Below, piece by piece: positions 11,199 to 14,411 of a stretch of 64,000 bases of DNA. Numbering within the stretch: the stretch's first letter is position 1; each line of letters begins with the position of its first letter. Both the position numbers and the translations under genes were made by a program. The notes under the pieces are model-generated. The model saw only the letters and a program-made list of their open reading frames with translations. It did not search any database and was not told the origin of the DNA. Source of the stretch: Thermodesulfovibrionales bacterium (GTDB taxonomy: Bacteria; Nitrospirota; Thermodesulfovibrionia; Thermodesulfovibrionales; SM23-35); contig CAVSHJ010000005.1 in the NCBI GenBank assembly GCA_963727725.1, positions 92,246-156,245 on the forward strand. Reading direction: 5' to 3'.

Positions 11199-11990
11199 AT
11201 GAACATTGATACACTCAGATCTATCGGGAAGAAACTGCTGAAAGAAATTCCTCCGGTCAACAGATTTTCTAAAACCGCTATCGGCATAGGCGCTTCCGGC
11301 GACAAGACCTATCCGATAGATAAAATTGCAGAGGATATCGTCCTCTCGGGACTTGAAGAATCAGGAGAAGCGCTTTCAATCATCTCCGAAGAGATCGGCA
11401 TTAAGGATATAAACGGCGGAGGCAGGAAGATTCTAATAGACCCCGTTGACGGAAGCAGAAATGCGGTGTCGGGTATCCCTTTTTACTGCACCTCAATAGC
11501 AGTTGTGAATGGCAATTCAGTGGGTGATATTGAGCTTTCCTATGTCCTGAACCTTATAAACGGCGATGAATTCTACGCTGAGAAAGACGGAGGCGCATTC
11601 CTGAACGGTGAAAGGATTATGACTCAGAGGGATGATGAATTCTATCTCGTCGCATATGAGGCACAGTCTCCGCAGAAAGACGTTCCCACGATAATGCCGC
11701 TACTGTCAAAAGCAAGAAAGACGCGATGCCTTGGTTCCACCGCCCTTGATCTCGCGTACCTCGCGTATGGTGCGATCAGTGTCTTTGCCAACCCTTCACC
11801 TTCAAGAAGTTTTGATTTCGCAGGCGGATGGCTGCTCGTGAAAGAGGCGGGCGGGATTTTTACGGATATGAAAGGCAATGCTATCGAGACAGTTGAAGTC
11901 AGCCTCAGAAAATCCACTCCGCTTCTCGTATCGGGTAATAAGAGCCTTCACGAGAAGGCATTGACACTGCTCGGCAAAACGGCAAGGTGA
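11199..11990 (+). CDS. Inositol monophosphatase / fructose-1,6-bisphosphatase family protein
   Basis: Motifs IDPVDGSRNA and FDFAGGWLLVKEAGG of the IMPase superfamily. Confidence 0.85.
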   Translation: MNIDTLRSIGKKLLKEIPPVNRFSKTAIGIGASGDKTYPIDKIAEDIVLSGLEESGEALSIISEEIGIKDINGGGRKILIDPVDGSRNAVSGIPFYCTSIAVVNGNSVGDIELSYVLNLINGDEFYAEKDGGAFLNGERIMTQRDDEFYLVAYEAQSPQKDVPTIMPLLSKARKTRCLGSTALDLAYLAYGAISVFANPSPSRSFDFAGGWLLVKEAGGIFTDMKGNAIETVEVSLRKSTPLLVSGNKSLHEKALTLLGKTAR

Positions 11991-12141
11991 GCAGGTTTTC
12001 GATGCCTCTTGTCCGTTTCGTTTAGGGGCCTCAGCGACCCGTAGCGTGGTTATGACGGTCGGTGCTTGTGTGCCGATCCGGGCCCTCGTTGAAAAAGGCG
12101 TAATGTCGAAAATGTTTGCAACGCGTACATTACTCGTTACC

Positions 12142-12171
12142 TTGACGAATTGTCCGGGAACATGATATCCT
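12142..12171 (+). promoter_or_regulatory. Relic csp-type promoter TTGACG-N18-TATCCT
   Basis: Aligns base for base with the promoter of the intact csp (TTGACT-N17-TATGCT), including the shared CATGATAT block. Confidence 0.45.
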
Positions 12172-12263
12172 TTTAGCAATCCTGGAAGTTTTTGCATTTA
12201 CACGAAGCCACATAGATTCCTAGCTTTGTAGCTTTTTTGTTGAGTCCTCCTGAGGTGAGCAAG

Positions 12264-12416
12264 ATGACACAAGGCACTGCAGCGGTAACATCTTTGTTTA
12301 TCATGCATCCATCCATCCTTGGCACTGGATTCGGGACCCTTGCTGAGGTGACAACATCAGCTTTGAACCGAAAAGAGCCCGAAAGACCCGGAGCAATTAA
12401 TGTAGTTAAAAATTAA
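12264..12416 (+). pseudogene. Decayed cold-shock-protein paralog (RNP1 region deleted, ORF still open, 50 codons)
   Basis: SD GAGGTG. The start ATGACACAAGGCACTG is almost identical to the csp start. Protein LFIMHPSILGTGFGTLAE...AINVVKN aligns with csp [18 protein letters not shown]...AINVVKL. It lacks the KGFGFI segment. Confidence 0.7.
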
Positions 12417-12470
12417 TGTACGATAGGGATCCCCCCTGATGAACAGGGTGCTCCTCTACAAAGAGGTAAA

Positions 12471-12860
12471 ATGTCATTCAGACAAAATTATCTGGAAAAA
12501 ATAGAACTGAGAAGACAACACAGGATGGCAGCTGGTTTAGTCTCTGAATGCTTTCCTGAAGTCTCGGACATCGTAGTTCGTATGACATACTACCAGAGGG
12601 CGATAAATCCGGTCCTGATGATTCGAACTGTAAATTTCTGGCCATCTCGATATGCCTATTTTAATATGGATTGCATGATAAAAGGCTGTACTGACGGCGG
12701 CTTTGATCTGACTTCAGTGATTTCTAAAATGGTCAAGAACCATAAGAAGTCCACAAAAGGGCAGCTTTTTTGCAATGGCAATATCAACGCCCTTGCCCAT
12801 GGCCATGCAACTGTTGCTTATCAAATTACTGTAAGGTACAACAAGAGCAATAAGAATTGA
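12471..12860 (+). CDS. Hypothetical Cys/His-rich protein (129 aa), no recognisable family
   Basis: ORF with an AGAGG SD. Motifs DCMIKGC...FCNGN...HGH. GC is lower than the flanks by eye. Confidence 0.55.
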   Translation: MSFRQNYLEKIELRRQHRMAAGLVSECFPEVSDIVVRMTYYQRAINPVLMIRTVNFWPSRYAYFNMDCMIKGCTDGGFDLTSVISKMVKNHKKSTKGQLFCNGNINALAHGHATVAYQITVRYNKSNKN

Positions 12861-12882
12861 AGACATTTAAAGGAAGCTTTAT

Positions 12883-13107
12883 ATGGGCAAACTGAAAAGA
12901 GTTAACTATCCTTGTAAACTTTTAGGGAAAAAGGTTCAACTGACTTTGGAATACGTCCAGCACACCATTGGTATTAAACCTTCCTTAGTAGGTTTTCAGT
13001 GTGATGATTGCAGCACCTGCGGCGTGGGCAACGAGGAACGTCCGGGAATTTGGACTTTTGATTGGTCTAAGTGCGTGCAGCCGGATATTGCGAACAGAAA
13101 TACTTAA
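12883..13107 (+). CDS. Hypothetical Cys-rich protein (74 aa), no recognisable family
   Basis: AAGGAAG SD 6 nt before the ATG, 22 nt after the previous stop. Motif FQCDDCSTCG...SKC. Confidence 0.5.
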   Translation: MGKLKRVNYPCKLLGKKVQLTLEYVQHTIGIKPSLVGFQCDDCSTCGVGNEERPGIWTFDWSKCVQPDIANRNT

Positions 13108-13320
13108 AAGTTGATTAGCTTCTGTCTGAAATTTAAAAGATTTGGTCTGCAAGATTTCTTATCTATAAGAAAAAACACTTATCATATATGCCCTATCTTG
13201 TCTGGAGCGCGTTCCTGAAACGACAGCTTTGAGATGAATACGTTCAAGACGCGATGGGAGCTGACAGGGAGAATAGAAAGAGAAGGCTCCCTCCACCGGA
13301 GGAAGCCTTCCTCAGCTATA

Positions 13321-13521
13321 TTAGAGTTTGACGACGTTGATTGCTTTGGGACCTTTAGGGCCCTGTTCGGTATCAAAGCTGACCTTGTCACCCTCGGCAA
13401 GGCTCTTAAATCCAGAGCCCTGGATGGACGTATGGTGGACAAAGACATCACTGTTGTCTTCAGCAGTAATGAAGCCAAAACCTTTGCTGTCATTGAACCA
13501 TTTCACAGTTCCTTGTGTCAT
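13321..13521 (-). CDS. cspA: Cold-shock protein (CspA family)
   Basis: [18 protein letters not shown] (RNP1) and VFVHH (RNP2). AAGGAGG SD. The track start at 13542 lies inside the SD region, so the real start is 13521. Confidence 0.96.
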
Positions 13522-13571
13522 TTTGTTTACCTCCTTATGCATAAACTAAAATCTCAGAAGGAACTCAATAA

Positions 13572-13607
13572 AAGAGGCCACAAAGCTAAAAGTCTTTGTG
13601 GCCTCTT
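13572..13607 (-). promoter_or_regulatory. 14-bp leader hairpin followed by a U-rich tract in the csp 5' UTR (attenuator or terminator-like)
   Basis: AAGAGGCCACAAAG-acttttag-CTTTGTGGCCTCTT, then TTATTGAGTT on the minus strand. It lies between the promoter and the SD. Confidence 0.55.
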
Positions 13608-13639
13608 GTGAACGCAAAAACTTCTAAAATCTTGTTCTT

Positions 13640-13668
13640 AGCATATCATGCCTTTATCGGATAGTCAA
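13640..13668 (-). promoter_or_regulatory. csp sigma70-type promoter TTGACT-N17-TATGCT
   Basis: Read on the minus strand. It gives a leader of roughly 110 nt. Confidence 0.6.
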
Positions 13669-13931
13669 GGCAATTCGATAATGGGTAGTATCCTAATTTA
13701 GGACACTACACGATAATGACAGCATATCCGGCGGAGAATCGGCTATGCTTTCTTTAAAGACTTCCAACTGAAAACATAAAAGCAGGATAATCTGTTATAC
13801 TCAAATGTACTCAAAACATATATAGAAGAGGAATGGTCGGATCGGGAAACTGATAAGCTGATTTCATTGCTATGGGGTCTGAGATAACAATTTGAAAGAA
13901 ATTATTTACGGAAGAAATCAAAGGAATTGCT

Positions 13932-14411
13932 ATGAATAATGAAGAACTGTTTGAAGCTGCAGAGAAGGGTAATCGCTCAAAGGTGAAGGTCCTCTTGAAA
14001 ACGGGTATTGATGTGAACTCAAGGGATATGATCGGGCAAAGCGCTTTAAGCAGAGCTCTGTTTGCCGGACATAACAGCATCGTAAGAATATTATTGGAAA
14101 GAGGCGCCAATATAAACGCAAAAGACGATTTCGGAGAGGCCGCTTTGCATAAGGCCTGCTATTTAGGTCGAAACGATGTTGTCAAGTTGCTGCTGGATAA
14201 TAAAGCGGATGTCAACGTAACGGATGCCCAGGGCAATACCTCCCTCATTATAGCTTCCGAAATGGAAGATAGTTCAATCGCAAAATTATTATTAAAGGGC
14301 AAAGCTGACATCCACTTAAAAAACGACAACGGTAATACAGCCTTGAGTATGGCCAGAAGATTAGAGCACACAGCGATGGTGTCATTGTTCAATCAACATC
14401 TCCTCCTCTGA
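13932..14411 (+). CDS. Ankyrin-repeat protein (four repeats)
   Basis: Repeats of the type G.TALH.A...GH..VV.LLL..GA..N. No signal peptide. Confidence 0.88.
   Translation: MNNEELFEAAEKGNRSKVKVLLKTGIDVNSRDMIGQSALSRALFAGHNSIVRILLERGANINAKDDFGEAALHKACYLGRNDVVKLLLDNKADVNVTDAQGNTSLIIASEMEDSSIAKLLLKGKADIHLKNDNGNTALSMARRLEHTAMVSLFNQHLLL

Follow-up and report, generated by a model that had tools for sequence, protein, structure and literature searches.

A decayed cold-shock gene, probably the former head of a conserved csp-p129 bicistron, in a Thermodesulfovibrionales bacterium

Background

Does a broken cold-shock gene with an intact homologue close by on the opposite strand derive from that neighbour, or is it the remnant of a gene that always stood there? 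This question is raised by a stretch of 64,000 nucleotides (nt) from a Thermodesulfovibrionales bacterium (assembly GCA_963727725.1, contig CAVSHJ010000005.1, positions 92,246 to 156,245), hereafter the window. On its plus strand a promoter, a leader and the remnant of a csp gene (the relic) precede two genes, p129 and p74, which code for proteins of 129 and 74 amino acids (aa), and an intact csp gene faces them on the minus strand (Table 1). The original prediction, made from the window alone, explained this arrangement by a decayed inverted duplicate of the csp locus, the two copies bracketing an orphan two-gene cassette. Comparison with related loci led us to a different reading, which we consider probable as a whole: the relic would be the decayed resident csp at the head of a conserved csp-p129 bicistron.

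Results

Homology between the two csp units

The claimed homology between the relic and the facing csp was borne out by formal alignment with shuffled controls. The homology extended over 12100-12416 on the plus strand and, read in reverse complement, over 13318-13720 at the csp locus. Local alignment of the coding part (plus-strand 12100-12470, aligned with 13280-13720 in reverse complement) scored 86, against 19.3 +/- 2.2 for 500 dinucleotide shuffles (z-score of about 30). Promoter and leader by themselves (12100-12264, compared with the region preceding the intact ATG) scored 75, against 17.3 +/- 2.3 for the shuffles (z-score of about 25), and none of 1000 shuffles reached 75. The leader block in which 48 of 61 identical positions had been counted by hand gave 49 of 61 on recount, and both promoters were found again by a promoter scan at the positions claimed.

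An independent Logan contig (L001; SRR18214521, 1262 nt) was 99.4% identical to the window over 12134-13395 and spanned the relic, both downstream genes and part of the intact csp. The relic architecture is therefore no assembly artefact, since it is present in a second assembly. Seven single-nucleotide polymorphisms (SNPs) separated the two sequences: none in p129, one in p74 (leaving the protein 100% identical), one in the leader hairpin, one in the open reading frame (ORF) of the relic, where it changed an amino acid, two in short spacers and two in the 3' spacer.

A conserved csp-p129 bicistron and the parentage of the relic

The analysis of related genomes was based on 80 p129 loci, the best 80 of 189 confirmed loci, referred to by L numbers. 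An intact csp of 66-67 aa was located directly upstream of p129, on the same strand, in 60 of these 80 loci. The p129 start most often followed the last position of the csp match by 57-72 nt (about 60 nt), and the genes found 3' of p129 varied among loci. The association of csp and p129 is thus widespread. It follows that the relic, which occupies the same place, would be the resident csp of the bicistron rather than a duplicate of the facing gene.

In the window, p129 started 54 nt after the relic stop and on the same strand, as expected of the second gene of the bicistron, and a pseudogene took the place of the intact first cistron. The window protein shared 82% identity with P0002, which is encoded behind an intact csp: the csp was intact in two of the contigs carrying P0002 (L087 and L088), and the third (L086) ended inside it. 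The relic was collinear with the csp of L087 and L088 through its 3' half, the stop codon after VVKN and the intercistronic hairpin, and on into p129. Its stop is orthologous to theirs; the neighbouring csp ends in VVKL. When 65 intact csp genes were ranked by their score against the coding remnant, L087 came first (70), followed by L082b (61), L059 (58) and, only in fourth place, the neighbouring csp (57). For identity of promoter and leader to the relic, the neighbour came seventh of 61. Functional leaders were 86-94% identical to one another, even between distant genomes, and the relic leader was 76-82% identical to each leader tested. The two arms are thus not the closest relatives that a local inverted duplication would have produced.

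The intact csp was 95% identical, leader included, to csp_B of the close relative L082, which heads a different operon (csp-p129B-PhoU_div-p74-radical SAM). These comparisons indicate that the facing csp is a separate paralogue and not the parent of the relic, and the notion of two copies bracketing a cassette is not supported. The likeness between relic and neighbour would come from the fact that all csp genes of the clade share coding sequence, promoter layout and leader.

A G+C-rich stem-loop between csp and p129 accompanied the bicistron in most relatives (L002-L081; for example also at L087:319-378). An uninterrupted stem of at least 10 base pairs (bp) was present in 46 of the 60 loci, with stems of 10-18 bp and predicted energies typically between -20 and -32 kcal/mol. 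The arms varied while their pairing was kept (covariation), and a T-rich tail followed in 25 of 60. By terminating part of the transcripts, this stem-loop may adjust the ratio of csp to p129. The window has retained only a degraded remnant, and its csp-p129 spacer as a whole was predicted to adopt a different, weak fold at -14 kcal/mol.

Structure and decay of the relic unit

The promoter of the relic has kept its -35 hexamer, TG and -10 hexamer, all in register with the conserved promoter that precedes the csp leaders of related loci, and is likely to be that of a relic-p129-p74 transcript. The leader downstream of it was recognisable, though degraded, by comparison with the leaders of the bicistrons. 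It retained the conserved box GGAAGTTTTTGC (12184-12195) and a remnant of the P2 hairpin (12206-12233), changed at 5 of 22 core positions and followed by a T-run. About 26 nt had disappeared; with them went the csp Shine-Dalgarno (SD) sequence and a portion of the long-range helix P1, whose 3' arm was thereby truncated. A new SD-like sequence, GAGGTGAG, was located at 12252-12259, 5 nt upstream of the ATG. The predicted minimum free energy (MFE) was -12.7 kcal/mol for the relic leader against -37.7 kcal/mol for the intact one. The leader assigned to the cassette by the original prediction is consequently of csp type, and it is no longer intact.

The 50-codon frame at 12264-12416 gave no Pfam match at E <= 1 and does not belong to the CSD family PF00313, whose five-stranded beta-barrel carries the motifs RNP1 and RNP2 (VFVHF). 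As had been claimed, about 45 nt encoding beta1-beta3, RNP1 (KGFGFI) included, were missing (153 nt remained of the 201 nt of the intact gene), and a codon-level audit placed this loss in the 5' half. The 3' half carried three separate 1-nt deletions, where a single, locally compensated frameshift had been proposed. The three sum to 3, and the frame was regained only for the last eight codons, AINVVKN and stop; the approximately 15 codons between the first and the third deletion were out of frame. The description of a dead gene with a csp-type promoter and leader was therefore right, its frameshift history was not, and the relic is an ordinary pseudogene.

Table 1. Features of the csp units and of the genes between them (window positions)
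Feature	Position	Strand	Basis or description
Sigma-70-type promoter of the decayed csp (candidate)	12142..12171	+	TTGACG-N18-TATCCT, TG before second hexamer; promoter scan
Degenerate csp-type leader	12172..12263	+	Sequence comparison, predicted MFE
csp pseudogene, 50-codon open frame	12264..12416	+	Alignment; tblastn against intact csp, E = 2e-6
Remnant of the csp-p129 intercistronic stem-loop	12426..12454	+	Degraded, T-rich tail lost
p129, 129 aa, Nitrospirota-specific conserved protein	12471..12860	+	463 homologues; alignment
p74 segment (gene, SD and 3' flank)	12866..13186	+	93.5% identical to L082; 3' flank matches L089
Strong stem-loop terminator of the intact csp	13280..13313	-	-30.5 kcal/mol, predicted
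Intact csp paralogue, 66 aa	13321..13521	-	Pfam CSD, 2.9e-29
Leader of the intact csp	13522..13639	-	P1, 13621-13633 with 13548-13560; P2 hairpin 13574-13605, then U-run
Promoter of the intact csp	13640..13668	-	TTGACT-N17-TATGCT, TG upstream

Recurrent loss of csp upstream of p129

No csp was found upstream of p129 in 16 of the 80 loci; in L013, where the contig is cut, the csp tail was still visible. In seven csp-less loci (L012, L018, L052, L064, L066, L072 and L081) a distance of 68-105 nt separated p129 from an upstream hairpin core with 0-3 mismatches in 22 positions; ahead of the core, the leader box and promoter-like hexamers could be made out. Most of the other csp-less loci displayed a recognisable degenerate version of the leader.

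The loci differed in the extent of the loss. A single nonsense codon, at position 52, interrupted the relic of L039 (3748-3950), whereas the relic of L029 (3740-4000) was heavily decayed and contained stop codons and that of L021 (3700-3913) had lost its N-terminal two-thirds together with the start codon. An almost clean deletion in L012 (267-370) left the last csp codons, GTAAAAATTAA, as a scar, and L018 showed an apparent clean excision from the leader to the SD of p129. A neighbour-joining tree of p129 showed these states scattered among csp-bearing relatives, which argues for at least 10 independent losses of csp. The p129 of the window grouped with those of four loci in which csp is intact (L002, L003, L004 and L007). 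We infer that the window represents one intermediate in a repeated trajectory of csp loss.

Expression of the cassette and alternative explanations

Under the reading of the relic as a decayed resident csp, transcription would start near 12178 at the relic promoter, cross what is left of the leader, the 50-codon relic frame and the decayed hairpin, and then read p129 and p74 in the direction of the convergent csp terminator (13280-13313). The ancestral leader and intercistronic hairpin would have imposed csp-type control and csp-to-p129 attenuation. Because both hairpins have decayed, this control and attenuation are probably weakened and expression less regulated. Intact paralogues, the neighbour among them, would provide Csp function in trans, and the csp-p129 family would repeatedly have lost csp while keeping promoter, leader and p129. 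The suggestion that the cassette is read from a csp-type promoter is, in this respect, the most plausible one, given the bicistron in 60 of 80 loci and the leader hairpin core kept in 7 of the 16 csp-less ones.

A number of points weigh against this account. The promoter is a candidate predicted by a sequence scan, and two other promoter-like sites, matching 9 of 12 positions, were found at 12264-12291 and 12703-12730. The upstream gene for an inositol-monophosphatase-family protein (IMPase, 11199-11990) lies on the same strand with no terminator-like site predicted before 12142, and read-through from it could contribute. The leader is visibly decaying (5 of 22 core mismatches, 26 nt lost, MFE of -12.7 kcal/mol), and csp-type regulation of the cassette may have ceased. 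The rearrangement that placed p74 and a convergent csp at this locus resisted reconstruction, and the loci on which the comparison draws are the best of those confirmed.

Some of these points lend themselves to another explanation, in which the relic promoter is dead and p129 and p74 are expressed by IMPase read-through (no terminator was predicted in 11990-12142) or from one of the two internal promoter-like sites, the relic -10 hexamer TATCCT being weak. We regard this as unlikely: all promoter elements have been kept in register with those of the family, seven csp-less loci keep a csp-type leader core directly upstream of p129, and the neighbours differ among loci, no IMPase gene being found near p129 elsewhere bar a weak match in L076. 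That the 50-codon frame itself is a translated small protein or leader peptide under selection, for instance by preventing Rho-dependent polarity on p129, seemed quite improbable. Its ATG has been kept, GAGGTGAG precedes it by 5 nt and the three 1-nt deletions restore the frame up to the ancestral stop. However, a CSD signal is absent, RNP1 is lost, some 15 codons are read out of frame and the sole SNP between the window and L001 in this ORF changes an amino acid. Other relics have kept no frame (L021 has no start codon, L029 has stops and L039 a nonsense codon), and an open frame of 50 codons is not improbable by chance.

The scenario from which this work started, a local inverted duplication of the neighbouring csp followed by decay of one copy, the two then bracketing a captured orphan cassette, we consider highly improbable. 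It accounts for two units that face each other 905 nt apart with promoter, leader and coding homology in common, and for the start context ATGACACAAGG common to the relic, the neighbour and the L082 csp genes, where L087 has ATGGCACAAGG. Against it, an intact csp precedes p129 in 60 of 80 loci, so that a csp at this place is ancestral; the collinearity of the relic with L087 and L088 extends past the stop codon; the neighbour is outranked for both the coding part (4th of 65) and the leader (7th of 61); the relic leader is no closer to one tested leader than to another (76-82% identity); and the neighbour has its 95% identical counterpart, csp_B of L082, at the head of a different operon.

A structured leader RNA in the csp genes of the order

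The csp leaders of the clade shared one design. The promoter, TTGACT-N17-TGnCATTAT, was followed by the box TTTCAGAAGTTTTTG, by a hairpin of the form GGCCACAAAG-ACTTTTAG-CTTTGTGGCC, by a T-run and finally by TTCTGAGAYTTTAGTTTAT and AAGGAGG. In this leader of about 115 nt the long-range helix P1 was predicted to enclose the terminator-like hairpin P2 and its U-run. In 51 of 60 loci the P2 core lay within an edit distance of 0-2 from its 22-nt consensus, CACAAAGACTTTTAGCTTTGTG. When the two-helix structure was laid over 58 sequences, 89.8% of cells were paired, against 34-60% with the partners slid; compensatory changes occurred in 12 of 23 leader pairs, and no shuffle reached the covariation score. 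These data point to a structured RNA conserved across the order.

The leader alone gave no credible match in Rfam and none to the cspA thermoregulator RF01766, and matches of the relic region were likewise at chance level only. Leader and coding sequence together scored 63.9 bits against RF01766 (E = 5e-15), a value below the gathering threshold of 78 and contributed by the coding part; the locus is not a member of that family. P2, a G+C-rich stem directly before a U-run and conserved with covariation, is a candidate intrinsic terminator or attenuator. As hypotheses, P2 and the U-run might serve as an attenuator, as a stabiliser or as a target of Csp.

The p129 protein

The description of the downstream genes as an orphan cassette did not hold for p129. 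Its homologues numbered 463 at E <= 0.01 in a collection of 5.8 billion proteins, and every named source was Nitrospirota/Thermodesulfovibrionales. A profile search of 1.84 billion cluster representatives returned 400 clusters (E <= 0.001, 50% identity), nearly all of them stand-alone proteins of about 125 residues. Residues C68, C73, C101 and H112 and the motif GGFDLT were invariant in the alignment. The ratio of non-synonymous to synonymous substitution rates (dN/dS), 0.18 in comparison with L087, indicates that p129 is under purifying selection.

Nothing was found for p129, p74 or the relic in Pfam, NCBIfam, PADLOC or PHROGs. Searches of the PDB with p129 gave no credible sequence or profile match, and Foldseek comparison of its AlphaFold2 model (predicted local distance difference test score of 73) with the PDB gave none below E = 0.4. 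Longer members of the family carried only low-complexity K/A/P-rich tails, with no informative domain fusions. Five distant members (P0122, P0127, P0163, P0168 and P0185) had such K/A/P-rich, histone-H1-like C-terminal tails of 90-250 residues; the C-C-C-H positions were kept in the tailed members, and P0122 showed a weak match to Pfam HC2. The H1-like tails give a weak hint of nucleic-acid association. From its sequence we hypothesise that p129 is a zinc-binding, nucleic-acid-associated factor.

A dense gene cluster of the RNA-metabolism and cold-shock type was observed in the close relative L082 (L082:1-7934; ENA ERZ27248265 k141_3889253). Its genes came in the following order: an RRM protein, a csp with a 123-aa p129 paralogue, a 95-aa protein of unknown function, a second RRM protein, ribosomal protein S21, KH (KhpA), a DEAD-box helicase, IF3 and finally csp-p129B-PhoU_div-p74-B12 radical SAM. 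One gene called there as 104 aa was a full-length p129 paralogue starting with MSYRQNYLER. This context would fit a role of p129 in RNA metabolism or cold shock.

It is possible, and here we are tentative, that the csp-type leader is an undescribed order-wide cis-regulatory RNA through which cold shock or Csp itself would control csp and the p129 family together, and that p129 is a new zinc-binding, nucleic-acid-associated Csp partner with an invariant C-C-C-H set. If this were true, the repeated loss of csp and not of p129 would make p129 a non-redundant component that works with any Csp paralogue in trans.

The p74 segment and the facing csp

The term orphan was closer to the mark for p74 (12883-13107), a Cys-rich protein (CxxCxxC) with a single homologue cluster of 17 members at 93% identity (cluster level 90%) and no hit in a sequence search of the PDB. 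Copies of p74 in relatives either followed PhoU_div (L082) or stood by themselves, in differing surroundings, each with a TATAAT promoter of its own some 35 nt upstream. Homology between the window and the other copies began 17 nt before the ATG, right after the p129 stop, and extended about 80 nt past the p74 stop; the promoter present elsewhere was absent from the window. The gene would therefore have arrived promoterless and depend on transcription from upstream. Its dN/dS of 0.13 indicates purifying selection. In this lineage specifically, a conserved gene and a near-orphan have thus been fused into the two-gene cassette. Among the p74 loci (L089, L095 and L097 included), a gene for a B12-binding radical SAM protein was recurrently seen nearby, downstream in L082-L083 and divergent, some 0.7 kb off, in L089-L094.

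The facing csp scored 101.2 bits against Pfam PF00313 (cut-off 27), and its best match in NCBIfam was the CspE antiterminator model, at 102.6 bits and below the equivalog cut-off of 120. Its SD was located within 13519-13536. The terminator downstream of it occupies the position held by the intercistronic hairpin in csp-p129 pairs, and plus-strand transcription would converge on it as well.

How p74 and this csp came to meet was approached through the sequence between them. Neither the 3' flank of p129 (L086/L087) nor the csp_B and p74 flanks (L082) matched window positions 13187-13320, and no remnant of a second p129 was found in this interval. The segment from the end of p74 homology to the csp terminator (13187-13279, about 95 nt) had no match in the fetched loci. 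The sequences spoke neither for nor against reciprocal loss from a convergent pair like that of L069 (see below). A mobile element or defence island was considered and rejected, as PADLOC and PHROGs gave no matches and no transposase-like neighbour appeared in the ORF list.

Discussion

Comparison with known systems

The locus shares features with several known systems and differs from each. As in E. coli cspA, whose cold box and thermosensor are described by RF01766, a major csp has a strong sigma-70 promoter followed by a long, structured and conserved leader of about 110 nt; unlike it, the leader considered here has its own architecture of P1, P2 and U-run and also precedes a gene other than csp, namely p129. 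CspA, CspC and CspE of E. coli are transcription antiterminators and RNA chaperones, and NCBIfam family names agree with this. With hairpins present in the leader and between csp and p129, Csp-dependent read-through would be a plausible mode of control; however, only 25 of the 60 intercistronic hairpins are followed by a T-rich tail.

The relic also resembles a unitary pseudogene at the head of an operon, in that the first cistron has decayed while the promoter and the selected downstream genes were retained. What sets the present case apart is that, within a single operon family, the loss recurs in 10 or more lineages, with stages ranging from a nonsense codon to a clean deletion. As in multi-copy csp families (E. 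coli cspA-I), several csp genes occur per genome with near-identical coding and regulatory regions. To our knowledge, no csp family has been described whose paralogues carry a dedicated, conserved downstream partner gene.

A literature search found nothing published on csp operons or leaders in Nitrospirota. The csp-p129 operon, widespread in Nitrospirota of the Thermodesulfovibrionales type, therefore appears undescribed, as does the csp leader RNA, which is strongly conserved, supported by covariation, missing from Rfam and would also drive p129 where csp is missing. The same applies to the graded loss of csp, in which promoter, leader and p129 persist through the stages of nonsense codon, multi-indel decay, large deletion and clean excision. 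This series illustrates how a leading cistron can be shed while the next gene inherits its regulatory region. In a phylum that has been little studied and is for the most part uncultured, p129 can also be put to the test as a candidate for a new factor of cold shock or RNA metabolism.

Genomic context of the csp-p129 module

In the window the module is flanked by the IMPase-family gene already mentioned and by a gene for a 159-aa ankyrin-repeat protein (13932-14411, plus strand). Apart from the weak IMPase match in L076, neither was syntenic with csp-p129 elsewhere, and the module accordingly sits in varied genomic contexts. Two csp-p129 pairs per genome were observed in three genomes, with two loci each (L004/L015, L003/L017 and L038/L051). 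Two pairs were likewise found within 4 kb in L082. In L069 (3741-6649) two pairs were convergent within 3 kb, an arrangement that recalls the geometry of relic, p129 and facing csp in the window.

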